The notes under the pieces were generated by a model. The model was not told where the DNA came from, made no database searches, and saw only the letters and a list, made by a program, of their open reading frames with translations. Below, piece after piece: positions 14,211-40,164 of a stretch of 64,000 bases of DNA (its first letter is position 1; each line of letters begins with the position of its first letter). The position numbers and the translations under genes are program-made. This DNA is from Octopus vulgaris (taxonomy: Eukaryota): assembly GCA_951406725.2 (NCBI GenBank), contig OX597825.1, positions 39,742,001 through 39,806,000 on the forward strand, read 5' to 3'.

Positions 14211-14454
14211 TACATAGAATTCTTGTTGAAATATTCTTGGAATAAACTGTTGTTTTTATGTTTTTAGCATTCGTGTATAGTAGACAGCGAGCAAACCTCT
14301 TCCCTTGTGTTCATAAATGTTAATGAGATTCCGACTGAATTTAATAATTAATTATGGTATAATAAAAAAACAGACTTTCTTTGCTATTCACTATGACATT
14401 CGAGACCAAAATTATTAGCAATTCTTCTGTGGAACCGTTATGGAGATTTGGCGA

Positions 14455-15736: not shown

Positions 15737-17154
15737 TATTATATAATTTACTGGTATGCAAGTTTGATGAGAATGCTGGGAAGTCAACAAATGTGAACTG
15801 CGTTCTGTGAACTCATACTGTAAAATAAAACCACATACATAACTTTCTCTTAAATAGGTTAAAATAAGCATTTGTAATATTGTTATTATTGTGCTACTGT
15901 TCGATAAAACGAACGGTATTTTCAGTGTTCAGCAAAATATTATTGAGGATGAACAAAAACAACGTATTAGATATCACAAGAAGTTTGTTGAGGTCGAGTG
16001 GAATAGATTTGATTATAACAGTATAAATATATATTGAATTAGTTATAAGGATTATTGCATCTCAATTTTTTTTTAACAAAGTAACTATCAGTTAATCACT
16101 TTAATAAAACGATCTACTTATTCTGAAGTTAAAAGCAATATAAATTTGAATAAATTAAATTAATCTTTTGTATCATCAGTTCTGCATTTTCACGCGATTT
16201 TCTTCTACATATGACATTGTACTTTATTTTGTTTATTTTTCATTGTTGCTGTACAACACCTATACGCAGTTGCAATCGACCGTTAGTGAAACAAAACTGT
16301 TATTGATTGCAGAAGGAGCAGGAAATGAGCAGTTGGGGCATCGGAAACTGGGCAATATACGAGACCAGGTAAACATTTAATTCAGGAAAGACTAGTGAAG
16401 GTCAACAAAACGACGTGAATTATGATATAAATACTCGAAAACAACACGGTACATGAAGCACTACATGATACACCAATGGAAAAACTTTTAGAGATATAAA
16501 ATTGACATTTTGAAAAAGGATCCAAAAAGCAGATATGTACAAAGAGTGACTCAAATGAACACTTAATCTTGCAATGGAAATGGCACTGGATAAAAAGTGA
16601 ATAGAAAGAAATGAAACTATTAAATTCCAAGTCTCAGAGTCAAGATATAAAATGTAAGCTCATTGATAATGAAATCTGCGTGAAATACACGAAAAATGCA
16701 AAAAAATCCAAGCAAAGCAATATTTCAAAAGTTTGTAAGGAGAAGTGCGAAATAGCGCTGAAACTTCTTTATAACTAGAGAACAACGCCACCGACTACAT
16801 TTAAAACTGTGAAACTGTTTTCAACTCGAACACACCTCCGTCAGTAATTTTTCTGAAAAGACGAAAATCTAAACACTACAAAGACTCATTTCTACAGAAT
16901 CAATCAAATACATCTTTTCGAGAAATGCCAGGAAAAAAAAAACTAGGACAACTCCATATAATTCTATGTAACCCATGCGATAAATTATAGAAACAGAAAT
17001 TACATTAATAATATCAGCTAGCCTCATCACTTTAAACATATTTTAGATCCTGTTTGCGTTATGTTAGTATACAGTCCAAAGGACTCAAAGTCTGACGAAA
17101 CACACAGAGACACAATGGCATTGAAATGAATGACGACATTTCTGAATTCTGAAG

Positions 17155-17343: not shown

Positions 17344-17753
17344 ATAATTAATCAATATAGGGTGGCAAACAAATTTTGTAGAATTCTTTTGCCACCAGCG
17401 GCCTAGTGGGAAAAAATTAAATAGTCATAGACCATTTTTAAGTTCAACATCAACAATCAAGGAACGGCCATAATAGGCCATTCACCCACTAGAAATAACA
17501 GCCAAAGCTTCAACCGCAAATAAAAATTAATTCCGTAAACCAGGAGAAAATTTAAAAAACATTTACCTTGTCATTTCTTATACGATATACCGTTTCATCT
17601 GCTGATTAAACGGTATATCGTATAAGAAATTACAAGGTAAATGTTTTTTAAATTTTCTCTGGTTTACGAAAATTAATTTTTATTTGCGTTTGAAGCTTTG
17701 GCTGTTATTTCTAGTGGGTGAATGGCTCATTATGGCCGTTCCTTGATTGTTGA
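17344..17753. mobile_element. Fold-back (inverted) partial copy of the 492-bp ribozyme-repeat family in (TA)n
   Basis: Arms 17450-17595 / 17608-17753; similar to 35719-35985; contains only the 3' half of the hammerhead. Confidence 0.9.
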
Positions 17754-17776
17754 TATATATATATATATATATATAT

Positions 17777-20700
17777 ATTTCAACAATTGAGGGTAAAATT
17801 AATTAATTATTAATCAATTTCACCAAGTGTTCAGTATGCAAAGGGACCATTTAAGGCGAATTCAAATTATTACATTATATAAAAGGGCTTAGTAAAATAA
17901 ATTACTTTGCCGCATACTGAACTCATTAGAAATAGCAGCTAAAAAACTTTTTAAAGCTATTTCTAATACTTAAAGAAAATCTCTCTCATATAGTGTTTGC
18001 TTAACTCAACTCACAAAAGTTTGGGGGTAAGGACATCAAAAAATCAAATGCAAAGGTTATTTGAGAACGTACGTTTCAAGATTAGTCAAAACGACACTTC
18101 TATCATCAGCTCAGAAACTCCTTGGTTTGGATTTGAAAACACTGAAAGTAAGAACATACCCTTTCGGCTTCTCATCGCTTTCGAAGATCTGCTCGTAACT
18201 AACAGTGCCAACAAACTCAAATATGCAAGCGAAGAATTTCTGTTCTCCCCTTTCCACCAGCGTGGGTTAAGATCATCAAACACTATGCTTATTTCGGTAA
18301 AATCCGAAGCATTAATTAGAGGGAGATTAATTATAATTTCAACAATTGAGGGTAAAATTAATTAATTATTAATCAATTTCACCAAGTGTTCAGTATGCAA
18401 AGGGACCATTTAAGGCGAATTCAAATTCGTTTGTTGGCACTGTTAGTTACGAGCAGATCTTCGAAAGCGATGAGAAGCCGAAAGGGTATGTTCTTACTTT
18501 CAGTGTTTTCAAATCCAAACCAAGGAGTTTCTGAGCTGATGATAGAAGTGTCGTTTTGACTAATCTTGAAACGTACGTTCTCAAATAACCTTTGCATTTG
18601 ATTTTTTGATGTCCTTACCCCCAAACTTTTGTGAGTTGAGTTAAGCAAACACTATATGAGAGAGATTTTCTTTAAGTATTAGAAATAGCTTTAAAAAAGT
18701 TTTTTAGCTGCTATTTCTAATGAGTTCAGTATGCGGCAAAGTAATTTATTTTACTAAGCCCTTTTATATAATGTAATAATTTGAATTCGCCTTAAATGGT
18801 CCCTTTGCATACTGAACACTTGGTGAAATTGATTAATAATTAATTAATTTTACCCTCAATTGTTGAAATTATAATTAATCTCCCTCTAATTAATGCTTCA
18901 GATTTTACCGAAATAAGCATAGTGTTTGATGATCTTAACCCACGCTGGTGGAAAGGGGAGAACAGAAATTCTTCGCTTGCATATTTGAGTTTGTTGGCAC
19001 TGTTAGTTACGAGCAGATCTTCGAAAGCGATGAGAAGCGGAAAGGGTATGTTCTTACTTTCAGTGTTTTCAAATCCAAACCAAGGAGTTTCTGAGCTGAT
19101 GATAGAAGTGTCGTTTTGACTAATCTTGAAACGTACGTTCTCAAATAACCTTTGCATTTGATTTTTTGATGTCCTTACCCCCAAACTTTTGTGAGTTGAG
19201 TTAAGCAAACACTATACGAGAGAGATTTTCTTTAAGTATTAGAAATAGCTTTAAAAAAGTTTTTTAGCTGCTATTTCTAATGAGTTCAGTATGCGGCAAA
19301 GTAATTTATTTTACTAAGCCCTTTTATATAATGTAATAATTTGAATTCGCCTTAAATGGTCCCTTTGCATACTGAACACTTGGTGAAATTGATTAATAAT
19401 TAATTAGTTTTACCCTCAATTGTTGAAATTATAATTAATCTCCCTCTAATTAATGCTTCGGATTTTACCGAAATAAGCATAGTGTTTGATGATCTTAACC
19501 CACGCTGGTGGAAAGGGGAGAACAGAAATTCTTCGCTTGCATATTTGAGTTTGTTGGCACTGTTAGTTACGAGCAGATCTTCGAAAGCGATGAGAAGCCG
19601 AAAGGGTATGTTCTTACTTTCAGTGTTTTCAAATCCAAACCAAGGAGTTTCTGAGCTGATGATAGAAGTGTCGTTTTGACTAATCTTGAAACGTACGTTC
19701 TCAAATAACCTTTGCATTTGATTTTTTGATGTCCTTACCCCCAAACTTTTGTGAGTTGAGTTAAGCAAACACTATATGAGAGAGATTTTCTTTAAGTATT
19801 AGAAATAGCTTTAAAAAAGTTTTTTAGCTGCTATTTCTAATGAGTTCAGTATGCGGCAAAGTAATTTATTTTACTAAGCCCTTTTATATAATGTAATAAT
19901 TTGAATTCGCCTTAAATGGTCCCTTTGCATACTGAACACTTGGTGAAATTGATTAATAATTAATTAATTTTACCCTCAATTGTTGAAATTATAATTAATC
20001 TCCCTCTAATTAATGCTTCAGATTTTACCGAAATAAGCATAGTGTTTGATGATCTTAACCCACGCTGGTGGAAAGGGAGAACAGAAATTCTTCGCTTGCA
20101 TATTTGAGTTTGTTGGCACTGTTAGTTACGAGCAGATCTTCGAAAGCGATGAGAAGCGGAAAGGGTATGTTCTTACTTTCAGTGTTTTCAAATCCAAACC
20201 AAGGAGTTTCTGAGCTGATGATAGAAGTGTCGTTTTGACTAATCTTGAAACGTACGTTCTCAAATAACCTTTGCATTTGATTTTTTGATGTCCTTACCCC
20301 CAAACTTTTGTGAGTTGAGTTAAGCAAACACTATACGAGAGAGATTTTCTTTAAGTATTAGAAATAGCTTTAAAAAAGTTTTTTAGCTGCTATTTCTAAT
20401 GAGTTCAGTATGCGGCAAAGTAATTTATTTTACTAAGCCCTTTTATATAATGTAATAATTTGAATTCGCCTTAAATGGTCCCTTTGCATACTGAACACTT
20501 GGTGAAATTGATTAATAATTAATTAGTTTTACCCTCAATTGTTGAAATTATAATTAATCTCCCTCTAATTAATGCTTCGGATTTTACCGAAATAAGCATA
20601 GTGTTTGATGATCTTAACCCACGCTGGTGGAAAGGGGAGAACAGAAATTCTTCGCTTGCATATTTGAGTTTGTTGGCACTGTTAGTTACGAGCAGATCTT

Positions 20701-21571
20701 CGAAAGCGATGAGAAGCCGAAAGGGTATGTTCTTACTTTCAGTGTTTTCAAATCCAAACCAAGGAGTTTCTGAGCTGATGATAGAAGTGTCGTTTTGACT
20801 AATCTTGAAACGTACGTTCTCAAATAACCTTTGCATTTGATTTTTTGATGTCCTTACCCCCAAACTTTTGTGAGTTGAGTTAAGCAAACACTATATGAGA
20901 GAGATTTTCTTTAAGTATTAGAAATAGCTTTAAAAAAGTTTTTTAGCTGCTATTTCTAATGAGTTCAGTATGCGGCAAAGTAATTTATTTTACTAAGCCC
21001 TTTTATATAATGTAATAATTTGAATTCGCCTTAAATGGTCCCTTTGCATACTGAACACTTGGTGAAATTGATTAATAATTAATTAATTTTACCCTCAATT
21101 GTTGAAATTATAATTAATCACCCTCTAATTAATGCTTCGGATTTTACCGAAATAAGCATAGTGTTTGATGATCTTAACCCACGCTGGTGGAAAGGGGAGA
21201 ACAGAAATTCTTCGCTTGCATATTTGAGTTTGTTGGCACTGTTAGTTACGAGCAGATCTTCGAAAGCGATGAGAAGCCGAAAGGGTATGTTCTTACTTTC
21301 AGTGTTTTCAAATCCAAACCAAGGAGTTTCTGAGCTGATGATAGAAGTGTCGTTTTGACTAATCTTGAAACGTACGTTCTCAAATAACCTTTGCATTTGA
21401 TTTTTTGATGTCCTTACCCCCAAACTTTTGTGAGTTGAGTTAAGCAAACACTATATGAGAGAGATTTTCTTTAAGTATTAGAAATAGCTTTAAAAAAGTT
21501 TTTTAGCTGCTATTTCTAATGAGTTCAGTATGCGGCAAAGTAATTTATTTTACTAAGCCCTTTTATATAAT
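17777..21571. mobile_element. ~560-bp hammerhead-containing tandem array with internal inversion (retrozyme-like), flanked by (TA)n
   Basis: ~1.2 units ribozyme-minus (17777-18427), junction at 18428, ~5.6 units ribozyme-plus (18429-21571); units differ by only a few bases. Confidence 0.93.
18532..18583 (+). ncRNA. Type I hammerhead ribozyme motif, 560-bp family (also starting at 19092, 19652, 20211, 20771, 21331 on +; 18062-18113 on -)
   Basis: tgag CTGATGA [t aga..gtc gtttt gac..tct t] GAAA cgtacg TT ctca: 4-bp stem I, palindromic stem III, GUU triplet, U-U mismatch at the base of stem II. Confidence 0.72.
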
Positions 21572-22094
21572 TTATATATATATATATATATATATTGTTA
21601 TATTTCGGAATGGTCATATTGCCAGTTTAGCCAATATATATATATATATGTATACTTATAATAAGAGTAGATCGTATACGAGTGGGTATATATTTGTAAT
21701 AAAGAAATTTGAAAACGCCACTATATTAGTTAAATTTTAATTTTCTTATGAATTTTACATGTTTCGGTTCTTGAAAAAACGAACCTTATCAAAAATATTA
21801 TAAAAGGTAAAGTGTAATAGCAAAGTTCATAATTGTTTCTTACTGGTCTCAATAGAATCCATGTGGTTGTGTTTTGTCGGTAGTAGGTATAATAGCTATA
21901 AATTTCAAGTTGAGTGTAGTAAAGAAGTTCATTATTGTTTCTGAAATGGTAGCAGCAGTAGTGATTGTTGGTCGTAGTAGTAGTAACCTTGGTGGTGGTT
22001 GGGGTTGCAGCAGCTTATTGGTTGGAGCGGCTAAGTTGTGGCAGTCCTAGCAGCAGCAGTATGACCAGTGGCTTAAATGGCAGTAGTAGCAGTT

Positions 22095-23762
22095 ATTGTA
22101 TCCCTAAAGTCCACAAAAACCAAATAATTGGTGAAACATGCAAAACATATTCCGATATGCTCTTCAGAATCCCTTCACCAAATTATCTTAAACTTAGACC
22201 GATAATAGCAGGCCCAGCATGTGAAACTCACCGCCTCAGCAATTTCTTAGACACACTTCTTAAACCTTTCCTAAAGCACATCAAAAGCTACGTAAGAAAC
22301 GATATAGACATGCTTAACCACCTCCCAAAAACAGTCAATGAGAAAACCCGTGTTGTATCCTTCGACGTATTTAACCTTTATTCAAACATCCCACACACCC
22401 TAGGAATAGAAGCGATCACTTTCTGGCTAAATAACTACTCCTTTGAACTCCAAACTCGCATAAATAAAGAACTTATAATAGAAGAACTTAGATTTATTTT
22501 AGAAAAAAATTACTTTATTTTTGACAATAATTTCTACAGACAAAGATCGGGAACAGCGATGGGCACGCGTACAGCGCCTTCTTTTGCCAACCTAGAGATG
22601 GGATACCTCGAGAAAATACTCTACCAGAAAACACTCGAGAAATATGGAAACACCTTCTCCACCTATTTCCAGAACACCTGGAAAAGATGCCTCGACGACT
22701 GCTTTATCCTCTGGGATAAAGGTATAGAGAAACTTGAGGAATTTAAAATACTATTAAATGGAATAAATGATAATATTCAGTTAACGATGGATCATAACGA
22801 AGAAGAATTGCCATTTTTAGACATCATCATTAAGAAAGCCGGCAACAAAATAGAGACAGGTATCTATTATAAACCGACAGACTCCAAGCAGTACCTACCC
22901 TTTGATTCATGCCACCCAAGACACACTAGAATAAATGTCCCTTTTTCTTTAGCTAGAAGGATTTGCACCATAATATCAGACACAAACACCCGACACACAC
23001 GTCTAGGGGGAACTTAGAACTACACTCCTAAATAGAAATTATCCACAGCCCCTAATAGACAGGGCAATCCAACGAGCACTTAAATTAAGTATAGAAGACC
23101 TAAGACGAACAAAACCAAAAAAGAAAGAAAAATTAAAAACCCTTCCCTACTTCTCTACACACAACCCACTTAACAATGAGGCCTTCAGCACCATACTACA
23201 AAGCACAGCCCTACTAAAGGGAGACCCAAAGATGAACCGGATCCTCGAAACACACACCTTCATTAAAAGTAAACGGCTACCAAAAACCTTGAAAATGATT
23301 TTAACCCAAGCTAAACTGCACTAAACATCAACCATAAAACCAGCAGTTAGAAAATGTGGAAAGCCCAACTGCGGAATCTGTGTCATCTTGGTAGAAGGTT
23401 CAGAATTCACATTAGAACAAGGCCATCAGTTTACCATTAGAACAAACTTCACCTGTGCATCAGAAAACTTAATTTACGTCTTAACATGCGCATGTTGCAA
23501 TAGGCAGTATATAGGCCATACAAAAAGCAGCTTACGTAAAAGGATGGCAGTGCATAAATACCAAATTAGAAACCCTGAATACCGGAAAATACCAGTCATC
23601 GGACACATAGATAGTTTCGCTTCAAATAAAAATCCGAAATTTACAGCTTGCCCACTTTACAAATTGAGTGACAGCGTAACCTTCACTCAACGCCAAAATA
23701 AAGAACTTTACTTCATTAACAAATTTAGACCAAGTTTGAACACCATGGGCCAGGAATATTAA
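22095..23762 (+). pseudogene. Penelope-type reverse transcriptase + GIY-YIG endonuclease
   Basis: YCIPKVHK, LRPII, SFDVFNLYSNIP, YRQRSGTAMG, WKRCLDDCF, FLDI, YYKPT, SCHP; CGKPNCGIC; NLIYVLTC..C..YIGHT..LRKRM..H; premature stops near 23015 and 23322. Confidence 0.93.
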
Positions 23763-24268
23763 AACAAAACATTGGTCTTCCGAAAAGAAACATGAAATTC
23801 TACCACAACCACCACGATCACTACGACTGCTTCCACTGCTACTACAACCACTGTGGTCACTACTATTGCTGCTACGATCAACATTCCTCCACTACTGCTG
23901 CTGATACGGCCACAGCTTAACCGCTACAAACCCAACCACCATCACGGTTACCACTACTACGACCAACAGTAACTGCTACTACTGCCATTTAAGCCACTGG
24001 TCATACTGCTGCTGCTAGGACTGCCACAACTTAGCCGCTACAACCAATAAGCTGCTGCAACCCCAACCACCACCACGGTTACTACTACTACGACCAACAA
24101 TCACTATTGCTGCTAACATTTCAGAAACAATAATGAACTTCTTTACTACACTCAACTTGAAATTTATAGCTATTATACCTACTACCGACAAAACACCACC
24201 ACATGGATTCTATTGAGACCAGTAAGAAACAATTATGAACTTTGCTATTACACTTTACTTTTTATAAT

Positions 24269-24313
24269 ATTTTTGATAAGGTTCGTTTTTTCAAGAACCG
24301 AAACATGTAAAAT
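24269..24313 (+). ncRNA. Minimal hammerhead motif in the Penelope pseudo-LTR, U3-A8 core variant (inverted copy 21752-21796 on -)
   Basis: attt TTGATAA ggttc-loop-gaacc GAAA catg TA aaat. Confidence 0.78.
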
Positions 24314-24403
24314 GCATAAGAAAATTAAAATTTATCTAATATAGTGGCGTTTTCAAACTTCTTTTTTACATATATATATATTTGTATACGTATATATATA
24401 TAT

Positions 24404-24434
<31 letters not shown>

Positions 24435-24499
24435 TGTGTGTGTGTGTGAATGTACATGTGTATGTGTGTGAGTGTGTGTATGCGTGGTTGCCTTTATGC

Positions 24500-24732
24500 C
24501 TGTGTTTGTCCCCGTCACCGTTTGACAATCGTTGTTGGTCTGTTTACATCGCTGTACCTTAGCGGTTCGGTAAAAATGATCAATGGATTAAGTACTAAGA
24601 TTTAAAAAGTTGCCCTGTTGTTAGCTTATTCGACTAAAACCGTGGAAAGCATCGCTACACCATGCCACAGTCAAACGACTCAACCAAGTAAAAGAATAAA
24701 AGAATAAAAGAATAAAAGAATAAAAGAATAAA
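24500..24732 (+). mobile_element. SINE 3' half with (AAAAGAAT)n tail
   Basis: tttgacaatcgttgttggtctgtttacatc...cttagcggttcgg...ttcgactaaa; related pieces at ~30330-30450, ~47110-47270 (-) and ~55570-55715. Confidence 0.7.
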
Positions 24733-24739
24733 TGTATGA

Positions 24740-27700
24740 CTCACCGAAGACTTATACCTAAAAATGACGATGACGCGTTAGCAGTAAGAAAAAGCAGCAA
24801 GTACATCCCACTAAGATGTGACGACAAAACCATAGAATATTTCAATGAATACGTTTTAAATTAACCATAAAAACTCACAAAGAATATTACAAACTTAAGA
24901 GGATTGCCTCAGAAAATACAAAAAAATTATAAACAGATAAATAATAGTTAAGAAGGTTGATATAGAAAATGCAGTAGTCTGGAAGGACACAGAATAATAG
25001 TGTCGTATTCATAATAGGAGACAATCCATGCTATAGAAAGACGTAAAACTAAAGTAAAGAGAAAATGAGAAACACGAGGATATTAATAAACTTTTGCAGG
25101 GAAGAATTCATCAACAAAGATTACGTCAATATTACAAACTTCAGATGTACGTCTACAGTCTTGTGTGCCATACGGAAAGTACATAAACGTGGAAATATAT
25201 GTGAAACATGCAAAGAAGTCACTGACATAATACATTAATATCAGATTACCAACTGGTGTGAAACTGAAGATCGATAATAGCTTTTTTTCTAAATCACAAC
25301 CAAAAGATACTTCATAACATGACTAAGAGAAGCTAAAATTTCTCCCGAAAACACTGACCAAAATATCTTTGATAGACTCTATCGATGTAGTGAGATTTTT
25401 ATCCAAATGCTTCTTGCGACTTAACAATTGTGATCTTAAATTCTGTTTGAATAATTAAGTACGTGTTTTTCCAAAAAACGAAATACTTTATATTCAATGA
25501 CAACTTTTTAAACAAAAATCTATAGCTGCAACGTGGACGAAAACGATCCCTCTTTTGCGAATCTACTCATAGACTACCATGATATTACGTTATTGCATGA
25601 AAAATGGGAAGTTCTTTCCGCATAAGCATACAAGAAAAGTTGAAATTACCTTGAGAATTGGTTCATTCAATGGAAGGAAACACTGAGATGCTAAATGAAT
25701 TGCAAACACTTCTCACTGGAATTAATAATATTCAATTTAGTAGGAAATATAGCCCTAACGATCTCGCAATTGTTGGCATTCTAATAATGAAAGTCAATAA
25801 CCAAAAATGATAGAATCCAAACAATATCTTCCGTTCCGTTTATGCTATTCGAAACACACCAGAATAAATATCCGTTATATCCTTGCCAAAATTATTTGTA
25901 TGATAGTATTCGATACAAACATCCGTATTCTTTAATCTAGAATGACATTCAGCGAGTCAAGAAATCCAGTGCATATCTTTGTGAAAGTAAAGAGAACGAT
26001 CTAAAATAACATTGCTGGTCAACCAGGAAGTATATTGAAATTGCAAGACTCACCAAACAAGAGAACATCTTTCGAAATTTATACAGTATATTGACACGGA
26101 AACATATGGACGCATCTTAATCTGACGTCCTCATAGTCTCATAGTCTCACTACCAAGCTCATTCTACAAGAAGTTACTTCGCTGTAATTAATAAAAGAAA
26201 CCGCCAGAATTGCATATATGGAGAGGATAGTCAAAAAATTATATAAACAGGTCAAGTGTGTTCCAGTTCAAATATCGTTCAAATATTTCTTGCACATTTA
26301 AATTAAATTGTATTGCTTTCATCTAATATTTTTTATTTAGTCCATGCAATTATTTACATGGATTTCTTATTCTATTTACGTGTTAACGCATAACATTCTT
26401 CAACTACCGCATAACATTCTTCAACTATTCCAGTTGTTCTTGTTATAACACAGACGCTTCTATTTACTTTCTACGAACAAAAATGAAGCTATTTTGAATA
26501 TTTCTAATTCTCTGTAATCTGCAGGACTCATGTAGAATATACTATTTCTATGTTGTGTATTTTCGGTTATTTTTTATCATACCAGTGGCATTACTATATG
26601 ATGTGTGTTTACTGTTTGAAACTATTGCATAGATATGCACCAGAAATATTAAGATTAGTAACTGTTGTATCTATTCATCTGATGGACGTGTTTAACTGTA
26701 TATATTTTGAAATAGAAATAACATTTCACTATCACTATATAAAATAATCTGAAAAAACCCAGAACTAAAAAATGTATGAGGCATAAATGCTTCAATTATC
26801 AAAGCCCAAACAACTTACATATTCAGGTATGGACTCGGATTGTCTTCCAGCAAAAAATAATATTTTTTGTATCACTTCGTAATAATTCATGCAATAGAGT
26901 GTTACCAAACGAAATTCAAACTTGTATTTAGCATTAAAAAATCACCTTCTATGAATTGGTTATGGTATGGGTTGCATTAAATGTAGAGAATACACATTAA
27001 ATAGGTGTACGAAAATTGACAAATTATCAGTATTTACATATTAGAAATATACGATCAAACATGCAACCCCGAAGAAAATATAAAATGCTAAAATGCAAAG
27101 AGTAATTAAAAGAACCCTTATTCCTAACAGAGAAACCTTCCTGCAATCCGTTTGTCCTATAAACCTCTGACAAACAATAACCAATATATAATATTTATAA
27201 CCCATTAATAAGATTTGTTATTAAATCCAAAATTATTTTTAGATTATAATTAGAAAGTAGAAGCAATTTCATATCAAAATATTTCAAAAGATCAAGTCGT
27301 TATGAGAACATCGTTCAAGTATGTAGAAACCATAAATGGTAATTATAAAACCATGCCAGAGAGATTTGGCTGTAAACGAAGATTTATAAGACAAAGTTTC
27401 TTGAATTAAGGAGAAATAACGACATCAGATAAGTAGATCAGAGGTACCCATACTAATACTTTCCACTAGCAATTGAGGCTACAAAAGAAACAGAATTAAA
27501 TAGCAGAAATAAGATCATAACAAACTTCTCTATAATATATTTGAAGTTAAATGATAAGAAACTTGTACTTGTAAAGAAAATATGGAAACTTCTTACAAGC
27601 GTCTGTAAACACTATACCTATGTTATTATGAATAGACGATAACTAGCAAATGCAGTTTGATATCAGAGATGGATACTATGTCAACACTGTTTACCTTAGT

Positions 27701-28010
27701 AAGTGCAACCATATTTCAGTGTTGTAATAATTCCAGCAATATAGCAACAATACGAATAACATATAATTAGAAAAAAAATGAAAAGAATATTTATGTTACA
27801 GGGAAAAAAAGCAAAACATTTAATATATGGCGAAGTAATTTAAGATACACCTAACGTTAACTAGAATGCGAACAAAGTCAATAGAATTCTTGAAAAGTGA
27901 CAATGAAACAAGTTCGTAAAAATCATAACACAATGTAAGTGGAAATTGCCAAATCAAAACTGGAGAGAGGCATGAAGATATCACTAATAATTTGTAATAT
28001 AACATAGCTA
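24740..28010 (+). mobile_element. Very old decayed non-LTR (R4/Dong-like) remnants
   Basis: A-rich strand bias with faint zinc-knuckle-region resemblance near 27700; no intact frame. Confidence 0.3.
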
Positions 28011-29317
28011 GGATGATATCCTGGCTATGATATAGAAGGCCAAAATCCCTATACTGACTATATTATAGAAAACGAACATTGACCCATAAAAGTTGATTAA
28101 AATATCCTCAACAAATGGATGAAGTAGCTTGCACAGCGGTTGCAAATCCGCAAGTAAAGATTTTTGACGAAAACGTATGGGTAATTTGATGGAATATGTG
28201 CAGTTCTTTGGTGGAAGTATATAGAAAATTGATAACATCACCTGTCAACTATTGAAAATTTATTTATTAAATTTTATTTATGGCTTTATTGAGAAGCAGT
28301 ACTTGAAGAACGAGAATGTATGCATGACTTGAATGACGGCATGTGATTTCATGTGAGCTATATGACTAATAGAAAAGTTAAATAAGCATCTAATATAAGA
28401 TAAGGGGTTAAGATCAGCTACGATATGTTCGAGGATTTATGGGTGTCATCGTGCAACAACTAAATATATTTCAAGTTTTCATGCAGTTGATTTTGTATAT
28501 TATCTCTTTAGAATCGATGTTGTGAAATGTTCTAGAAGAAAATATTCCTTCAGTACAACCAAGGAACGTGGTCATAATTACAAACATTTCATCGTCTACC
28601 TACACACGGCAAGGCAATATGTGTATCTTAAAACGGTAGATAGCTTGAAAAGCTGCGTGATTGAATATGTTTGAAGGGAATAGTAAGCATTCTGCGCTTT
28701 TATATTGAAACCATATCTGTACTTAGATACATACGGAGAGTTGACATTACAATTGAAGGTGCAGAACGCAAATACGTTTTATGCAATGTGATATTAATGA
28801 TGTTAGCGCTAGAGATATACATGAAAAAGGTATCACCTAAGTATGTACAAGTAAGCTAGGCAATGACCGTTGGGTCTTAGAATTACCCTTGAGATATAAA
28901 CGAATAAGAGGACAAACAAAAGACATTACCAACAATTTTGGTAGGAATTTCATATATTTAATAAAAGTTTGACCTCTAGGTCAATTTCGCGGATTAATAT
29001 TATGAGCACGAAGATAGGTCAGAAAAAAATACAAACATACCTATCAACCTACCTTCCAAGCTACCTATATATATATAAATATATATATATAGGTGAATTG
29101 CGGAAACCATGGTTCGCTTTGTTTTCTGACTTTATAATCATTTCATAATAATGACTTTTATGACATTTATTACTACCTCAATCCATCTAAATGTATATAT
29201 TTGTCGTTACCTGTCAAAAAAAGCCTTTTTTTTTGCAATGTGCATTTTCGCTGATTTTTCATATTTTACCCTTACATATCCACGTGTAATGTTTCTTTTC
29301 TTTTTGTAACATATTTC

Positions 29318-29362
<45 letters not shown>

Positions 29363-29386
29363 CATACACACATGCATCCACCTATA

Positions 29387-30230
29387 TACAGGGCGCAATG
29401 GGTAAATTGACACTAATTTGCATTCTTAATTTTGCGCATGCGCATTGTTATTTTTTATGTTGTCGACTACAGAGCATAGTAATGTCAGTTGAAAACAGTC
29501 TGTGAGAAATACAGCACAATGACGCAATTCACTTTGCCCTAAATTTTGAAAGGACATGCTGTATTGCTTCGCTTTCGCGCCTGAAGATCCAATACGAACA
29601 CTTCCGAGTATTTGGGAGTCAACTTGAGAACAGTCCAATGTGAGAACATGTGCCTTGAGTGGTAAAAATATCCAATAAAGAGCATGGTGTTTTGAGTGAT
29701 CACTAGTGATAGCGACCTTATGCCTCCATTCATGTTCCTACACGGCCTCACTCTCCACACAGAGGCCCATATCAAGTGACTGGAGGAAGTAGCGTTGCCC
29801 TTGATCAAGTGAGTGACTGCTGAATGACACTATGTCTGGCAACAGGATTCTGCAAGATGCCATACAAACAGGGGAACCAACTCATGGCTATCAGATAATT
29901 TCTGCGACCACATCACCCCTAATATCTAGCCGCATAACTCACTAGACTGCAACCCCATTCATTATTATGAGCGAGTGACCAAGAAAATTCCGTAAAATAC
30001 CGAAGATAAATTGAAGGCTAGGATTATGGTAGCATTCACCAACTTAAACAAGGAGATCGTCCAGTAAAGTTGCAGGAGATCCCAAAGTCCTCTGAGGCCG
30101 TGGTTGAAGTGAATGTCGATTTTATTGAATAAATGTACTTTTTAGTTTTAGATATTTTTATGGAGATTTGGTAAAGATAGCTGTTAAAATGAGATGTCAT
30201 GTCATTTACAAACTTGCGTAACTTCTTATA
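29387..30230 (+). mobile_element. Decayed Tc1/mariner-superfamily deletion derivative
   Basis: TA|CAGGG terminus; WQQDSARCHT at ~29837 and an S.DCNP-like motif at ~29940. Confidence 0.7.
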
Positions 30231-30479
30231 CATGTGTGTATATATATATATGTGTGTCTGTGTGTATATGTGTGTGCGCGTGTGTATTTATGTGCTAGTA
30301 TTTATGTGTTTGTCTTTGTGTCTGTGTTTATCTCTCCAACCCTAGTTGGTGTGTTTACGTCCCCGTAAACTAGTGCTACGGCCGAAGAACCGATAGAATA
30401 AAAGCCAAGCTTAGAAAGAATTAGTCCAGGAATCGTTTTCTGCGACTAACGCGTAACCTATGATCATTTTTATGGAACA

Positions 30480-30720
30480 CCAGCAATTGTCCATGCAACC
30501 AACATTTCCTCTCCACGCCACCGATGTTATTCAAGGGAAAAACAACGGCCGGTACAGCTTATCACCAATGATGTTGCAAGTCATTTCTACAGCTGAGTGA
30601 ACTGGAGCAACATGAAAAAAAGAGGCGTGCTCAAGAACACAACACGCAGCGCTATCCGGGAATCGAACTCAACCTCAAGATCGTAAGTTGGACACTAACC
30701 ACTGAGCTATATTCCTTCAT
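30480..30720 (-). mobile_element. tRNA-derived SINE (different family)
   Basis: ctggagcaa...gctcaagaacacaac central domain and gggaatcgaactc / taaccactgagc B- and A-box complements. Confidence 0.7.
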
Positions 30721-30737
30721 TATATACATACATACAA

Positions 30738-30823
<86 letters not shown>

Positions 30824-31125
30824 ATATATCGTGAATTATATTTGCCACTTAAATGTGGCTAACCTTTAAGGGTGGATGCTACTGTAGCTTGTTGTCCCAG
30901 GAGGACACCGCCTCCAGCGGGCTATTGACACACTTTTCTGTGCCCTATGAGTATTTGCAAAGGGAAACCATTCTTCCCGTATATATATATATATATATAT
31001 AACGGGAAGCTTTATGAAAATAGACAAAAGACGAAGGTAGGTTTACGGAAATAAAGAAAAGACGAAGGCAGGTGGAATACAAACAAACAATTGTATTAGT
31101 ATGGCTTTCAGGAAATATAAATAAA

Positions 31126-31196
<71 letters not shown>

Positions 31197-31197
<1 letters not shown>

Positions 31198-31928
31198 GAG
31201 GGCATTATTACACATACATGCCACACGCTAAGAGGGACATTAGTCATTTCTACCAAAAAATTTTACTAATCATACCCAATGCAATTTTTCAAAGCAAGAC
31301 ATTTAAAAAATGAATTTAGTCTTGTATCACCTGTGATTTCGTACTTACCGCAGTTGCGACCGTACTCATCAGCAAGACTGATTCTGAACATATCATAAAT
31401 AAACGACCTCGCACCGTCAAAGCCGAACAGCTATCTGTTCTACTCTAACGAAGCACATGGGGAAGTTTACATATAATACATCCGGTAAATGGCAGGCTTC
31501 TTCGAATTGCATTTCGGATAGGAAAAGTTTTTTTGGAATATAATTATTTAACAATTAAGGATAACTTCTTAATAAGGAATCTTAACAAGAAATTATCAGG
31601 TAGATAGCGTGAAAAACCTCATAAGAGAAAACATTTCGAAAATAATTCTTTCTTATTGAACATATTACTTTATATATAGAGGGCATTATTACACATACAT
31701 GCCACACGCTAAGAGGGACATTAGTCATTTCTACCAAAAAATTTTACTAATCATACCCAATGCAATTTTTCAAAGCAAGACATTTAAAAAATGAATTTAG
31801 TCTTGTATCATCTGTGATTTCGTACTTACCGCAGTTGCGACCGTACTCATCAGCAAGACTGATTCATGCTATCTACCTGATAATTTCTTGTTAAGATTCC
31901 TTATTAAGAAGTTATCTGTAATTGTTAA

Positions 31929-31935
<7 letters not shown>
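31197..31935 (-). mobile_element. 481-bp hammerhead-containing tandem repeat (1.4 units) with a short terminal inversion, in (TA)n
   Basis: Direct repeat 31197/31678; 31864-31935 is the reverse complement of ~31541-31612. Confidence 0.9.
31318..31379 (-). ncRNA. Type I hammerhead ribozyme, 481-bp family (second copy 31799-31860)
   Basis: Minus strand: agtcttg CTGATGA gtac...gtac GAAA tca-cagg-tga TA caagact; 7-bp stem I, canonical core. Confidence 0.88.
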
Positions 31936-32000
<65 letters not shown>

Positions 32001-32003
<3 letters not shown>

Positions 32004-33013
32004 TAATACTAAGTAATTAAGGGTTTAGCAACGAATTGCCTCACCAACACACCGAATTTAGAAATAGCAGTCAAATAGATATAGCTATTCCTTCTACTAA
32101 AAGGGGGATCTCAGTAAAAACACAGCACTTGAAAGGCAAACACAGACAGGTAAGAAAGAAAGAATGAAATGACGGCAATCCATCATACAATTTTAAGTTA
32201 CCTACGGACGTACGTTTCGAAATCAAGTTTTAGGAGAGCATAAGAATTAGAAAATTCTACTTTACCCAAACTTCTTTTCTCATCGGCGCAGGATACCACA
32301 ATTATGAATAATTATATATTAAATTTTGAGATACTAGAAGGCATTATCTCAACTCAGTGTCAGAGCGAGCCAAAGCATGACCAGTACCACGAAATTCAAA
32401 GTTTGAATGAAAGTTTGTGTCACCAGCCCCCTTCCACCCGCGTGTAGCCAAGACAAAATGCTGCGGTCATTTACTGGGATAAAATATGGTTATCAGTAAT
32501 AATAAAGGGTGAAATTAATTAATTTGGAATAATTATCAATTACACCAAGTAGATTTCGGCATGTAAAAGCCCCATTCGAGGAAAATTTAAGTAATACTAA
32601 GTAATTAAGGGTTTAGCAACGAATTGCCTCACCAACACACCGAATTTAGAAATAGCAGTCAAAGAGATATAGCTATTCCTTCTACTAAAAGGGGGATCTC
32701 AGTAAAGACACAGCACTTGAAAGGCAAACACAGACAGGTAAGAAAGAAAGAATGAAATGACGGCAATCCATCATACAATTTTAAGTTACCTACGGACGTA
32801 CGTTTCGAAATCAAGTTTTAGGAGAGCATAAGAATTAGAAGATTCTACTTTACCCAAACTTCTTTTCTCATCGGCGCAGGATACCACAATTATGAATAAT
32901 TGTATATTAAATTTTGAGATACTAGAAGGCATTATCTCAACTCAGTGTCAGAGTGAGCCAAAGCATGACCAGTACCACGAAATTCAAAGTTTGAATGAAA
33001 GTTTGTGTCACCA
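32001..33013 (-). mobile_element. 588-bp hammerhead-containing tandem repeat (1.7 units) in (TA)n
   Basis: Direct repeat 32001/32589 with few differences; (TA)n on both sides. Confidence 0.9.
32201..32292 (-). ncRNA. Type I hammerhead ribozyme, 588-bp family, CCGAUGA core (second copy 32789-32880)
   Basis: Minus strand: cctgcg CCGATGA gaaa...tttc GAAA cgtacg TC cgtagg; 6-bp stem I with one G-U pair, long stem II, GUC triplet. Confidence 0.85.
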
Positions 33014-34509
33014 TATATATATATATATATATATATATTACACATTTGTAGAAACACACACACAAATATATATATGATGGCAATCTTTTCTACCATGAGG
33101 AATAGGCGCACGGCATCTGCTAGCTATGTAAACCACACCTTAAATGAAGGTTTAAGTTCAAATTTACCTAATATATCTCATGTATGATGACGATGGCCTT
33201 TATCTTTGGCCTTTATCGTCTACTGCAGTTTTAGTTCCTCTTGCTTTGTTAAAAATGCGATCTGGATGAAGTTTCGCTATACCTCCCTCTATTCCTCGAC
33301 TCCCTAATTACTTGAATTTGTTCAGCAAATATCCTTACATAAATATATTTCAGTGTAGTTTTCCAAATTTCTTTGGAGTTCAATATTACAGGATTTCTGG
33401 CGGTCTCTTTCAGGAAACATCTGACATTTGTTGTGACGTGTACTTAGGAAAATTGTCTTTGTTAGAGACTTGAGACTATTTCCTTATTTGAATGCTCACT
33501 TTTCGACAAATCTTTGAAACTTCTTGGTAAATAACTTGATATTTTATCATCGTCATTACTTTTGTTTAACTCAAGTCTGATAATTGAAAGTAAACTATTT
33601 ATTTTAAATATAAACAACATTATAAATCATATAAACTTGATCATATAAACATGCATTGATCACAAAATTAATCTTTCAAGAAAAGAAAAGTTATATGAAA
33701 GAAATAAAAAAAAAATTAAAGAAGACTTAGATAGACGCTGTGAATATTTTCTGATAAATTACTATATTAGTAATAACGGATATACAGTAGAAATTATGGA
33801 CATTATAAGCAGACAGAGAAAAATGTAAAGAATGTGTGCATAACTTAATTAGTAAATTAATGTTATCAGTTGAGCCATTGAATTTAGCAATAGAATTTAC
33901 GTAATAGAAAAGTATAAAATCTTCAATTAAAGCTCTGATAGGATAGTACATTGATTTATATTGAAAACAAAAAACGCATTTAAGCTTCTAGAATATTCAT
34001 ATTGTAGCTCAGTAATACCTCAATATTTCTCATCTGAAGAACAATTACACTTTACAAATTAAAACAAAATAAATTTCTCTCGTTAAATCGAGGCAAAAGT
34101 ATGGGAAAAGAAACAGTAAATTTACATGACCCCCGTATTTTCGTTCCATTTCGTTATTTTAGATCTTGAATTATAATGTAATGTATTAACGTAATCACAA
34201 CCCCAAATCATACACACCCATATAATGAATGATCCAACTTTTAATTTCTTTGGTTGTTATAGGTGGATAGAGTAATAACATATCGCAAAATGTGTACACC
34301 TTTATACTGAACTCAAATAAATAAAAAAAAGAAAGATAACATATACAAATAAATAAGTAATACTGTAGAAAGAGTTGTGTTCCGCAAGTAGATAGATATT
34401 GATGACAGCGCAAAGAAAACCAAAAGCAGCAACTAGGTGAGTCAAAATCCCGCGGTAGATGTTGGCATGTCATTTCATATAAAACCTACTCTAGCAAATA
34501 GTGTGAGTA

Positions 34510-34747
34510 TATACTCTTTTACTCTCTTGACTCTTTTACTTGTTTCAGGCATTTGACTATTGTCATGCTGGAGCACTGCCTTTAGTCGAGCAAATCGACC
34601 CCAGGATTTATTATTTGTAAGCCTAGTACTCACAAGGCTTTGGTCGGCCCGAGACTATAGTAGAAGACACTTTCAGAAGGTGCCACGCAGTGGGACTGAA
34701 CCCGGAACCATATGGTTGCTAAGCAAGCTACTTACCACACTCCTATG

Positions 34748-34750
<3 letters not shown>
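34510..34750 (-). mobile_element. SINE (internally deleted)
   Basis: Tail cttttacttgtttcag..catgctggagcac and tRNA-like head gtgccacgcagtgggactgaacccgg. Confidence 0.75.
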
Positions 34751-34796
<46 letters not shown>

Positions 34797-34798
<2 letters not shown>

Positions 34799-35612
34799 AT
34801 CACAACAGTTTGATACAAATTCATTGGTAATCTTGAGATTCAAACGCGATACTAGTCGTCAGCCATTGAGAATTTGAATTACTGAACTTGAATGTTATTA
34901 AGGTAAGATAGGGTGGAATTGGACTAGAAAGGTCGGAAATGGTGTCGTGGTTTGATGTTGGTATATGAGTAACAGGTAATTGGAAAACACAGCATGGCGA
35001 ACACGAAATTGACAAAGTGGAGAACAGGAAATAGATTAGAAGCCGGTCAGGTTGTTGGGGGAGTAGGACGGGGCGGCATATGCAAGTATATAGTTCTATA
35101 TTGTGGGTGTGCAGACGTGCCCGTATACTTTTGCATGCATGTATGCGAATATGCGAATGTACATATGAATGAATAAGCATGTGTGTATGAGCCTATGTAC
35201 GTACATGTGTGTATAAGCGTGTGTATGTGTGTGCAGACGCGCGTGTGCGTACAGATTCACACATGGGTATCAATATACACATGCACGAAAAATTATATTA
35301 GAGTCTGTGCACACCCAGATATATACTAGCAAATGCCCCCCTCCTACTTACATCCAACAACCTGACCGACTAATAGTCTATTTCTTGTCCACGTGGTCAA
35401 TATTCTGCTCTCTATGCATTATTTTCCAACTAACATTTACCCATTTACCAACATAAAACCACGATATCGCATAACCTTCCTCGACCAATCGCAGATCACC
35501 TTACGGTAATAATAATCAACTTCTGTCTTCGAAATTCGAAATAGCTGACGACTAGCATCACGCTTCCACCTACAGCGTACAATCGAAATTGAATCAAGCT
35601 GTTGTGATCCAT
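34797..35612. repeat. Diverged ~270-bp inverted repeat flanked by (TA)n
   Basis: Arms ~34797-35065 / ~35335-35612 (ggatcacaacag / ctgttgtgatcc; ggtcaggttgttgg / ccaacaacctgacc). Confidence 0.8.
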
Positions 35613-35665
35613 TCATGTAACTTCCAATACACTGGTTGTATGCCTTTCTTTCGTTCGACCACTCA

Positions 35666-35718
<53 letters not shown>

Positions 35719-35721
<3 letters not shown>

Positions 35722-38700
35722 ATCAATATAGGGTGGCAAAAAAAAAATTTTGTAGAATTCTTTTGCCACCAGCGGCCTAGTGGGAAAAAATTAAATAGTC
35801 ATAAACCATTTTTAAGTTCAACATCACAATCAAGGAACGGCCATAATAGGCCATTCACCCACTAGAAATAACAGCCAAAAGCTTTAACCGCAAAATAACA
35901 TCAATTCCGTAAACCAGGAGAAAATTAAAAAACATTTACCCTGTAATTTCTTAGACGATGCACCGTTTCATCTACTGTTTAATGGTAAACTAACCTGATT
36001 AAATTAAATCAAGCCAATCTACCATAGGCCCTTAGATTCATCAGTAAGAAATAGCCAAGTCGGAACAGATATTTTTCACGAGGCATTCCCGTTGCTACCT
36101 CGGCAATATCTGACCTAAAATTTTCAAATCGTCGCACTCGCGCCAAATTTATCGGCAGCAAATAAATATAAGCCGCCGATTCCATTACGGAATTAACCAG
36201 AAAATTCATAATTAATCAATATAGGGTGGCAAAAAAAAAATTTGTAGAATTCTTTTGCCACCAGCGGCCTAGTGGGAAAAAATTAAATAGTCATAAACCA
36301 TTTTTAAGTTCAACATCACAATCAAGGAACGGCCATAATAGGCCATTCACCCACTAGAAATAACAGCCAAAAGCTTTAACCGCAAAATAACATCAATTCC
36401 GTAAACCAGGAGAAAATTAAAAAACATTTACCCTGTAATTTCTTAGACGATGCACCGTTTCATCTACTGTTTAATGGTAAACAAACCTGATTAAATTAAA
36501 TCAAGCCAATCTACCATAGGCCCTTAGATTCATCAGTAAGAAATAGCCAAGTCGGAACAGATATTTTTCACGAGGCATTCCCGTTGCTACCTCGGCAATA
36601 TCTGACCTAAAATTTTCAAATCGTCGCACTCGCGCCAAATTTATCGGCAGCAAATAAATATAAGCCGCCGATTCCATTACGGAATTAACCAGAAAATTCA
36701 TAATTAATCAATATAGGGTGGCAAAAAAAAAATTTTGTAGAATTCTTTTGCCACCAGCGGCCTAGTGGGAAAAAATTAAATAGTCATAAACCATTTTTAA
36801 GTTCAACATCACAATCAAGGAACGGCCATAATAGGCCATTCACCCACTAGAAATAACAGCCAAAAGCTTTAACCGCAAAATAACATCAATTCCGTAAACC
36901 AGGAGAAAATTAAAAAACATTTACCCTGTAATTTCTTAGACGATGCACCGTTTCATCTACTGTTTAATGGTAAACTAACCTGATTAAATTAAATCAAGCC
37001 AATCTACCATAGGCCCTTAGATTCATCAGTAAGAAATAGCCAAGTCGGAACAGATATTTTTCACGAGGCATTCCCGTTGCTACCTCGGCAATATCTGACC
37101 TAAAATTTTCAAATCGTCGCACTCGCGCCAAATTTATCGGCAGCAAATAAATATATGCCGCCGATTCCATTACGGAATTAACCAGGAAATTCATAATTAA
37201 TCAATATAGGGTGGCAAAAAAAAAAAAAAAATTTTGTAGAATTCTTTTGCCACCAGCGGCCTAGTGGGAAAAAAATTAAATAGTCATAAACAATTTTTAA
37301 GTTCAACATCACAATCAAGGAACGGCCATAATAGGCCATTCACCCACTAGAAATAACAGCCAAAAGCTTTAACCGCAAAATAACATCAATTCCGTAAACC
37401 AGGAGAAAATTAAAAAACAGTTACCCTGTAATTTCTTAGACGATGCACCGTTTCATCTACTGTTTAATGGTAAACTAACCTGATTAAATTAAATCAAGCC
37501 AATCTACCATAGGCCCTTAGATTCATCAGTAAGAAATAGCCAAGTCGGAACAGATATTTTTCACGAGGCATTCCCGTTGCTACCTCGGCAATATCTGACC
37601 TAAAATTTTCAAATCGTCGCACTCGCGCCAAATTTATCGGCAGCAAATAAATATAAGCCGCCGATTCCATTACGGAATTAACCAGAAAATTCATAATTAA
37701 TCAATATAGGGTGGCAAAAAAAAATTTTGTAGAATTCTTTTGCCACCAGCGGCCTAGTGGGAAAAAATTAAATAGTCATAAACCATTTTTAAGTTCAACA
37801 TCACAATCAAGGAACGCCCATAATAGGCCATTCACCCACTAGAAATAACAGCCAAAAGCTTTAACCGCAAAATAACATCAATTCCGTAAACCAGGAGAAA
37901 ATTAAAAAACATTTACCCTGTAATTTCTTAGACGATGCACCGTTTCATCTACTGTTTAATGGTAAACTAACCTGATTAAATTAAATCAAGCCAATCTACC
38001 ATAGGCCCATAGATTCATCAGTAAGAAATAGCCAAGTCGGAACAGATATTTTTCACGAGGCACTCCCGTTGCTACCTCGGCAATATCTGACGTAAAATTT
38101 TCAAATCGTCGCACTCGCACTATATTGATTAATTATGAATTTTCTGGTTAATTCCGTAATGGAATCGGCGGCTTATATTTATTTGCTGATGATAAATTTG
38201 GCGCGAGTGCGACGATTTGAAAATTTTAGGTCAGATATTGCCGAGGTAGCAACGGGAATGCCTCGTGAAAAATATCTGTTCCGACTTGGCTATTTCTTAC
38301 TGATGAATCTAAGGGCCTATGGTAGATTGGCTTGATTTAATTTAATCAGGTTAGTTTACCATTAAACAGTAGATGAAACGGTGCATCGTCTAAGAAATTA
38401 CAGGGTAAATGTTTTTTAATTTTCTCCTGGTTTATGGAATTGATGTTATTTTGCGGTTAAAGCTTTTGGCTGTTATTTCTAGTGGGTGAATGGCCTATTA
38501 TGGCCGTTCCTTGATTGTGATGTTGAACTTAAAAATGGTTTATGACTATTTAATTTTTTCCCACTAGGCCGCTGGTGGCAAAAGAATTCTACAAAATTTT
38601 TTTTTTGCCACCCTATATTGATTAATTATGAATTTTCTGGTTAATTCCGTAATGGAATCGGCGGCTTATATTTATTTGCTGCCGATAAATTTGGCGCGAG

Positions 38701-39013
38701 TGCGACGATTTGAAAATTTTAGGTCAGATATTGCCGAGGTAGCAACGGGAATGCCTCGCGAAAAATATCTGTTCCGACTTGGCTATTTCTTACTGATGAA
38801 TCTAAGGGCCTATGGTAGATTGGCTTGATTTAATTTAATCAGGTTAGTTTACCATTAAACAGTAGATGAAACGGTGCATCGTCTAAGAAATTACAGGGTA
38901 AATGTTTTTTAATTTTCTCCTGGTTTACGGAATTGATGTTATTTTGCGGTTAAAGCTTTTGGCTGTTATTTCTAGTGGGTGAATGGCCTATTATGGCCGT
39001 TCCTTGATTGTGA
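35719..39013. mobile_element. ~492-bp hammerhead-containing tandem array with internal inversion (retrozyme-like), flanked by (TA)n
   Basis: ~4.9 units ribozyme-minus (35719-38118), junction at 38119, ~1.8 units ribozyme-plus (38120-39013). Confidence 0.94.
38292..38398 (+). ncRNA. Type I hammerhead ribozyme, 492-bp family (also 38785-38891 on +; 35946-36052, 36438-36544, 36931-37037, 37431-37537, 37923-38029 on -)
   Basis: atttctta CTGATGA atcta[58-nt hairpin insert]tagat GAAA cgg-tgca-tcg TC taagaaat: perfect 8-bp stem I, canonical core, GUC. Confidence 0.93.
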
Positions 39014-39053
39014 TATATATATACATATATACACACATATATACATATACACA

Positions 39054-40062: not shown

Positions 40063-40068
40063 TTACTG

Positions 40069-40108
<40 letters not shown>

Positions 40109-40164
40109 CATCATCATCATCATCATTATTATTATTACTACTTAAAAAGGATTGACGTAACTCT

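Follow-up and report, generated by a model that had tools for sequence, protein, structure and literature searches.

How do tandem arrays of non-coding units, each unit with its own hammerhead ribozyme motif, come to lie between TA microsatellites at four places in one stretch of octopus DNA? The window analysed here is the whole 64-kb stretch of Octopus vulgaris contig OX597825.1 (assembly GCA_951406725.2, positions 39,742,001 to 39,806,000), a part of a 2.8-Gb, microsatellite-rich animal assembly; positions below are counted from its first base. Self-comparison and reading of the sequence distinguished four non-coding repeat families, A to D, with units of 560, 481, 588 and 492 bp, in blocks 17777-21571 (A), 31190-31934 (B), 32000-33013 (C) and 35719-39014 (D), all between TA runs. 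A first-pass annotation of this DNA had described four largely dissimilar arrays with these periods, bounded by (TA)n. The periods and the boundaries were confirmed, the run right of D being only 10 nt long, and the dissimilarity holds broadly, although A matches C at 69% over 93 nt and has 24 nt in common with D. Families A to D are animal retrozymes of the type lacking long terminal repeats (non-LTR retrozymes), a known class whose link to Penelope has already been published. It is likely, in our opinion, that these young repeats were copied into TA microsatellites by a borrowed Penelope-type enzyme, i.e. a reverse transcriptase (RT) with a GIY-YIG domain, through twin priming at two sites.

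A descriptor scan of both strands of the whole window detected 18 type I hammerhead motifs (7 in A, 2 in B, 2 in C and 7 in D) and none outside the four blocks, while 20 locally shuffled windows gave 0-1 loose and 0 strict matches. The earlier count of 18 complete motifs, one per unit, was thereby upheld. A complete motif is found in at least two consecutive units, the arrangement by which retrozymes are recognised. The units are non-coding, with longest stop-free frames of 54-68 amino acids (aa) in B, C and D and of 123 aa, antisense and without a Pfam match, in A; their GC content is 0.34-0.37, they matched no proteins of Penelope-like elements (PLEs), and no LTR was found either.

First-look searches returned 1,494 candidates for the unit of A, 2,178 for B, 2,156 for C and 1,376 for D. 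Among the best 40 candidates, which were scored in each search, identity over full units was 97-100% for A, C and D and 91-98% for B; the four families are young and dispersed. The flank analysis that had been proposed as a check was carried out on 161 insertions, namely those at 80 loci (batch 1) and 76 loci (batch 2) and five in the window itself. Loci L001-L030 (overlapping fetched arrays) were not counted, nor were 10 loci from a search with the 3' part of D, two of which were fetched again in batch 2 as L279 and L291; this search, made for unbiased 5' ends, returned mostly known loci. TA runs of at least 10 nt adjoin 149 of 170 insertion ends in batch 1 and 125 of 152 in batch 2 (274/322 in total). 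The same holds for 979 of 17,927 random 20-mers of the batch 1 loci (5.5%), so the enrichment is 15-fold, and it extends over many contigs.

The ends of the insertions are not scattered along the unit. When counted from the predicted ribozyme cut, each family has two 3' end sites, a short and a long one (A about +193 and +292, B +135 and +262, C +205 and +300, D +131 and +236), about 100-130 nt apart. Two arms are present in 116 of the 161 insertions, with both 3' ends directed outward (tail-out). Among the 69 two-armed insertions of batch 1, 58 combine a long with a short end, one has two short ends, none has two long ends, and 10 include an unclassified end. The end windows were then fixed, and in batch 2 (n=47) the respective numbers were 34, 1, 0 and 12. 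One long and one short end are thus paired in 92 of 94 classifiable insertions (P ~5e-25 against 50%). Arms are joined through overlaps of 1-6 nt in 66 cases, bluntly in 18, with insertions in 31 and through one longer overlap; the joints in L034:6980-7394, L058 and L289 contain short reiterated pieces of the unit, resembling stuttered copying. Partial tandems with inverted arms, a tail at one end and a bias to (TA)n are the features by which PLE insertions are recognised, and the proposal that each array is one dispersed (TA)n insertion with Penelope-type anatomy was supported. In the window, insertions A, B and D and a separate D fragment all pair a long with a short end, and C has one arm:

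17344..17750, diverged fragment of family D with two tail-out arms, the left one ending at the long (+238) and the right one at the short site (+128)
17753..17778, (TA)n common to the D fragment and array A
17777..18427, minus strand, left arm of array A, 651 bp with its 3' end at the long site (+290), one hammerhead core (18109) and a predicted cut at 18066
18429..21571, plus strand, right arm of array A, 5.6 units of 560 bp with the 3' end at the short site (+193)
18536, 19096, 19656, 20215, 20775 and 21335, plus strand, hammerhead cores of the right arm of A
21573..21594, (TA)n bordering array A on the right
31132..31197, (TA)n bordering B on the left
31190..31865, minus strand, left arm of B with 1.4 units of 481 bp and its end at the short site (+135)
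31372 and 31853, minus strand, canonical hammerhead cores of the left arm of B, AUA site
31863..31934, plus strand, right arm of B, 72 bp, end at the long site (+264)
31936..32001, (TA)n common to B and C
32000..33013, minus strand, family C in a single arm of 1.7 units (588 bp each) that ends at the short site (+207)
32286 and 32874, minus strand, U4C hammerhead cores of C, 61-nt stem II region, palindromic stem III
33013..33038, (TA)n bordering C on the right
35669..35718, (TA)n bordering D on the left
35719..38118, minus strand, left arm of array D, 4.9 units of 492 bp, end at the long site (+234)
36044, 36536, 37029, 37529 and 38021, minus strand, hammerhead cores of the left arm of D, 8-bp stem I, 68-nt stem II region, GUC site
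38120..39014, plus strand, right arm of array D, 1.8 units, end at the short site (+131), hammerhead cores at 38300 and 38793

Blocks B and C hold only 1.6 and 1.7 units, respectively. The fragment at 17344-17750 is an insertion in its own right, 91-92% diverged, and has no complete ribozyme, the 5' half being missing. Between 17294 and 24433 five pieces stand end to end around TA runs (the D fragment, array A, a 39-bp piece and a two-armed Neptune-type element described below); the 39-bp piece, at 21595-21633, also lies beside TA in L061, L076, L123 and L168. B and C, too, stand on one common run; TA runs serve as repeated landing sites.

What might place the two starts? The suggestion of a second module shared by the families was borne out, and as a predicted fold the module reaches family B too. 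Independent minimum free energy (MFE) folds of A, B, C, D and a further family, E, all show a hairpin enclosed by a long-range helix; next comes an AT-rich single strand that contains the short end, and after it a long hairpin precedes the long end. An example from family A is:

19235..19433, plus strand, module with 5' hairpin, helix P1 enclosing hairpin H1, short start site, hairpin H2 and long start site

Fold z-scores of the five families lie between -3.3 and -7.4 (A -7.4, B -4.3, C -3.3, D -5.1), that of family H is -3.7, and family G (556 bp) folds alike, with ends at +196 and +293. In an alignment of A, C, E (two copies) and G, 46 pairs are kept and 6 are changed on both sides. Changes that break pairs are rarer among inherited (10/168) than among single-copy substitutions (62/441; P=0.005). 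The predicted module may act as the RT-binding and start signal, a role which would fit the two internal starts and the extension of both strands in the Anolis element discussed below (PMC11167929). At least five further hammerhead repeat families with long stem II were seen in 1 Mb of fetched DNA (L060:3002-3420, L343, L113, L124, L129 and L068:8951-9174). Family E gave 2,940 candidates and family G, with a U3:A8 core, 1,712, and both have the module. Outside it, an 18-nt GC-rich motif occurs at +362 of unit A (about 19501-19518) and at +351 of unit C, while an exact-pattern search did not find it in B or D; we regard it as a candidate for an internal promoter element.

The explanation we prefer would involve the following steps. 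A transcript of the unit array would self-cleave, and an enzyme, probably dimeric, would bind the two hairpins of the module and cut both strands of a (TA)n target. Each DNA end would prime one complementary DNA (cDNA), one at the long and one at the short site, and each cDNA would run back through the cut site over one to about twelve units. The template would most simply be a circularised monomer, which we consider somewhat better than an even chance, and otherwise an uncleaved multimer. The two cDNA ends would be joined at overlaps of 0-6 nt or with small insertions, and some arrays may later grow through block duplication at the DNA level.

The nature of the template can be approached from differences between units. 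As many as 242 of 284 arms extend over one cut site or more, and 121 over two, in a sample that favours such copies, which indicates that a cleaved linear monomer is not the usual template. In all 33 arrays of at least four units there are changes fixed in every unit, and 15 of these arrays are star-like, no change being common to only some units; array D of the window has 13 singleton changes and none shared between units. Star-like arrays with fixed subfamily changes argue for a bottleneck of one unit, with that monomer then being copied again and again. Copying of a monomer circle over many rounds, as first proposed, agrees with these arrays but does not fully account for array A of the window and 17 other long arrays. 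Changes common to only some units mostly form adjacent or periodic blocks in one arm and are missing at that position in the other, which argues for duplication after insertion. In array A, four changes in one unit-length stretch of the right arm were duplicated as a two-unit block, and three of the four are found in none of the other 39 A loci. Pure dimer or tetramer circles were rejected as the origin of periodic variants, because flanking units break the period. On these grounds we lean towards a circular template.

The same enzyme and start sites could, alternatively, act on a linear donor transcript that is uncleaved or partly cleaved and read through, with no circle and with arrays growing as DNA. 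Unprocessed RNA was the dominant substrate of a purified PLE in the work available to us (PMC11167929), block duplications restricted to one arm are common, and L058, L110 and L266 share changes in both arms only in the terminal unit; the excess of arm ends at the cut, described below, would fit partly cleaved linear multimers. Differences attributable to a heterogeneous donor are, however, seldom seen in both arms. Where both arms cover the same unit, 180 differences are confined to one arm, 20 recur in the other, and a single further copy is the basis for 19 of these 20. Taken with the 15 star-like arrays, whose subfamily changes are fixed in all units, this makes the linear donor unlikely, and we retain the circular monomer as the simplest template.

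Self-cleavage of the unit transcripts is a prediction, and the motifs differ in quality. B has the canonical form, with stems of 7, 4 and 4-5 bp and an AUA site, and D combines a canonical core with an 8-bp stem I, a 68-nt stem II region and a GUC site. In C the core is of the U4C type and stem III is a palindrome of the dimer type; A has a 4-bp stem I, a U-U mismatch opening stem II, a GUU site and likewise a palindromic stem III of that type, and the MFE fold of A lacks stem I. Rfam reported no hammerhead at E<=1 in the whole window. In a 1.8-kb search the two B motifs scored 17.4 and 17.2 bits against Hammerhead_1 (RF00163), below the cut-off of 34, and C was absent from the list. Such scores lower membership in the model and not the structural reading of the motifs. 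The U3:A8 and U4C cores, the U10.1-U11.1 mismatch and the palindromic short stem III are described type I variants (PMC4209133, PMC3088659).

None of 168 inherited changes falls in the 44 core positions of the ribozymes (3.5 expected, P=0.03 against a uniform distribution). Arm 5' ends lie at +1 to +10 of the predicted cut in 14 of 277 cases, compared with 5.3 expected and with 5 just upstream; batch 1 contributed 6 (2.9 expected, P=0.08; 4 upstream) and batch 2 contributed 8 (2.3 expected, P=0.003 with four window sizes tried; 1 upstream). This excess is a hint that some templates end at the predicted cut. Where arm 5' ends cluster immediately before a query start, we attributed this to search bias and disregarded it. 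None of the holders listed for these sequences was recorded as RNA; contigs of runs presumed to be RNA, which carry no starts, ends or strand, cover D and C piecewise and weigh neither for nor against expression. Related old repeats at 54601-54960 and 58981-59250, both on the minus strand, have hammerhead-like cores with a palindromic or weak stem III and a stem I below the level of the scan.

A second alternative is that the units are orphaned pseudo-LTRs (pLTRs) of an unsampled autonomous Penelope family, the arrays being truncated by-products and not a separate parasite. Their anatomy is that of PLE insertions (PMC8557442), Xenopus retrozymes are reported as sister to pLTRs (bioRxiv 10.64898/2026.07.22.740005), and our search for a partner covered only the best-scored candidates. 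An origin of the units from a pLTR is itself likely. At none of the 156 other loci, however, does a unit run into a Penelope open reading frame (ORF), the outcome that the first-pass annotation had named as contrary to its proposal. Penelope protein fragments were found at 6 of 80 loci in batch 1 and 1 of 76 in batch 2, in every case separate from the arrays, and up to 12.7 successive units occur without an ORF. Subfamily changes are inherited array-wide over the whole unit, which indicates that the unit itself propagates. We regard orphaned pLTRs as very improbable. Penelope-type mobilisation of families A to D is well supported, and we infer the enzyme to be of that class.

The coding Penelope element next to array A serves here only as a comparator:

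21650..24370, plus strand, decayed Neptune-type Penelope element, RT and GIY-YIG, ORF pieces at 22082-23759, inverted 5' arm

Its sequence is unlike A to D. It has a CX2-5CxxC linker of the Neptune type (motif assignment after the available part of PMC8557442), a minimal U3:A8 hammerhead in each arm (24273, plus strand, and 21792, minus strand), which the descriptor scan had not detected, and ends at +60 and +106; intact 781-aa relatives are present in this genome. The long/short rule holds in all three two-armed Neptune-type elements in which both ribozymes are visible (that of the window, L127 and L130). The ends, the TA target and the inverted arm indicate that ORF-bearing elements here share target, inversion and pairing rule with the retrozyme families. 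In L117 a start codon directly follows the long site; L116, L117 and L118 have a separate upstream frame of about 430-480 aa, which begins after the long site and precedes the 781-aa RT frame. No link between a unit and an ORF was found in the Neptune-type 781- and 785-aa families (20 loci), at 30 GIY-YIG loci, at 30 loci of an old Poseidon-like family whose hammerhead is short and few of whose ends are TA, or in a young 775-aa family (20 loci). Families E (12 loci) and G (30 loci), considered as possible pLTRs, likewise gave no unit joined to an ORF, and hammerhead elements abutting truncated Neptune copies (L113, L124, L129) are better seen as neighbours in one TA target than as joined.

That the arrays are ordinary satellite DNA, grown by recombination or mis-assembly and resembling ribozymes by chance, is scarcely credible: the motifs were not called by Rfam, TA runs are dense in the window (50 runs) and block duplications do occur, but strict descriptor matches are absent from shuffles, and fixed paired ends, tail-out inversion and a 15-fold TA enrichment over many contigs are not products of satellite turnover.

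Several points nevertheless weigh against Penelope-type copying of self-cleaved circles. As regards the template, 18 of the 33 long arrays have changes common to some units only, and L110, L266 and L058 look copied from mixed templates. The ribozyme of family A is weak on paper; constraint on core plus stem I is not significant when compared with single-copy changes (3/168 against 15/441, P=0.42); and ends at the cut exceed expectation by only about 3% of arms, with a two-sided P=0.08 in batch 1. Only one of nine Xenopus retrozymes was reported to cleave in vitro (bioRxiv 10.64898/2026.07.22.740005), and ribozyme mutants were reported to leave insertion by a purified PLE unblocked (PMC11167929). 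The two F-type copies have fold z-scores of only -0.6 and -1.3, and the net covariation term of RNAalifold is slightly unfavourable (+0.53). Neptune tails here measure about 35-45 nt, not 100-130, and the one Neptune end that was folded gave no such module. In the Penelope groups inspected we met no autonomous element whose terminal repeat matches the units, each partner search having scored only the best 129-150 of 6,136-16,725 candidates. Finally, the sampled loci are the best matches to the units of the window, which biases them to young copies with at least one full unit.

Which parts of this picture are new? Non-LTR retrozymes have been described as tandem type I hammerhead repeats, expressed as circles and proposed to be mobilised by PLEs (PMC7229834), and units of 51-972 bp, PLE origin and kinship to pLTRs were reported (bioRxiv 10.64898/2026.07.22.740005). 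The first-pass annotation had not recognised the combination of larger size, long stem II inserts, inversion, TA targeting and a shared second module as described; the larger size lies within the published range and was rejected as a novelty, the Penelope link is in both papers, and inversion and TA targeting are known PLE features (PMC8557442). Like animal non-LTR retrozymes, families A to D are dispersed and high in copy number, with non-coding tandem units of a size within that range, one type I hammerhead each and GC below 45%, in a PLE-bearing genome. The two retrozyme papers, in the parts available, do not describe insertion ends, TA targets, two-armed inversions, paired starts or a conserved non-ribozyme fold. 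Li, Clavereau and Pollet (2026), as far as their text was available, prefer tandem amplification in place as the explanation; many arrays here, in contrast, look as if they arose with several units at once. Circles were shown for coral, mussel and axolotl retrozymes, whereas the present families are known from DNA sequence.

Endonuclease-bearing (EN+) PLEs (Neptune, Naiad and Hydra; Craig et al. 2021, PMC8557442) resemble our families in partial tandems, an inverted 5'-truncated arm, an optional tail at one end and a (TA)n bias, tied there to the CX2-5CxxC linker; the part of that paper available to us also describes non-autonomous head-to-tail Chlamys elements. The families here differ in having no ORF and in a tail of about 100-130 nt compared with 30-40 in PLEs, and the strict pairing of one long with one short end was counted in the present analysis. 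In the Poseidon element PAc of Anolis (Frangieh et al. 2024, PMC11167929, likewise available in part), the RT starts at two internal sites downstream of the hammerhead, which set the tail; the enzyme cuts and extends both strands of the DNA and is predicted to be a dimer, and targets are AT-rich, all of which is alike. PAc is autonomous, however, and our families are not; no difference in start site between strands was seen for it, whereas the arms here nearly always use different sites; and its sites lie in an AC-rich stem-loop, in contrast to AT-rich single strands after hairpins. Published type I variants (Cervera and de la Pena 2014, PMC4209133; Perreault et al. 2011, PMC3088659) share the palindromic short stem III (A, C), the U3:A8 core (the Neptune element and family G), the U4C core (C) and the U10.1-U11.1 mismatch (A); the stem II regions of 61-68 nt in C and D exceed the examples in the accessible parts of these papers. 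The main text of an octopus repeat annotation (PMC13282606), in the part available, does not mention hammerheads or ribozymes. The literature covered, mostly open-access main texts, describes neither the pairing rule nor a tail of 100-130 nt nor the shared fold as far as we found, and the insertion signature is apparently unpublished.

These observations bear on how animal retrozymes re-enter DNA and on why Penelope insertions have inverted arms and a one-sided tail, both open questions in the literature available: the enzyme of retrozymes is left hypothetical (PMC7229834) and the PLE cycle is called undefined (PMC8557442). A broader reading, which we put forward tentatively as possible rather than probable, is that small RNA circles parasitise Penelope-type enzymes through a conserved, ribozyme-independent RNA fold that offers two start hairpins to the halves of a dimeric RT. 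If so, each half would prime from one end of a double-strand cut in (TA)n and roll round the circle, the one-long-one-short rule would be a general explanation of PLE tail and inversion, and the 200-nt module would be a portable signal for writing RNA into TA repeats. The families offer hundreds of young insertions, two mapped start sites and a candidate recognition fold across dissimilar sequences, and intact TA-targeting Neptune-type ORFs are present in the same genome, which makes a direct in vitro test possible.

Other repeats of the window are older or less clear. A TA-bounded, tail-out, two-armed element at 34797-35668 has arms that agree at only 67%; one of its ends is short and the other long, and its core, CUGACGA, was missed by the type I scan. 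At 59560-60335 an old B-like element, about 70% identical to B copies and in two pieces, adjoins a TA run. Several decayed copies of long interspersed elements (LINEs) ending in (TAA)n occupy 491-11800, with RVT_1 and zf-RVT domains at 9282-10937. Older inverted repeat pairs are found within 39537-45240 (40189-41173 with 42641-43494, and 44063-44421 with 44862-45240), near a 231-aa frame on the minus strand at 40497-41192 that has no Pfam match; these pairs are possibly remnants of DNA transposons.

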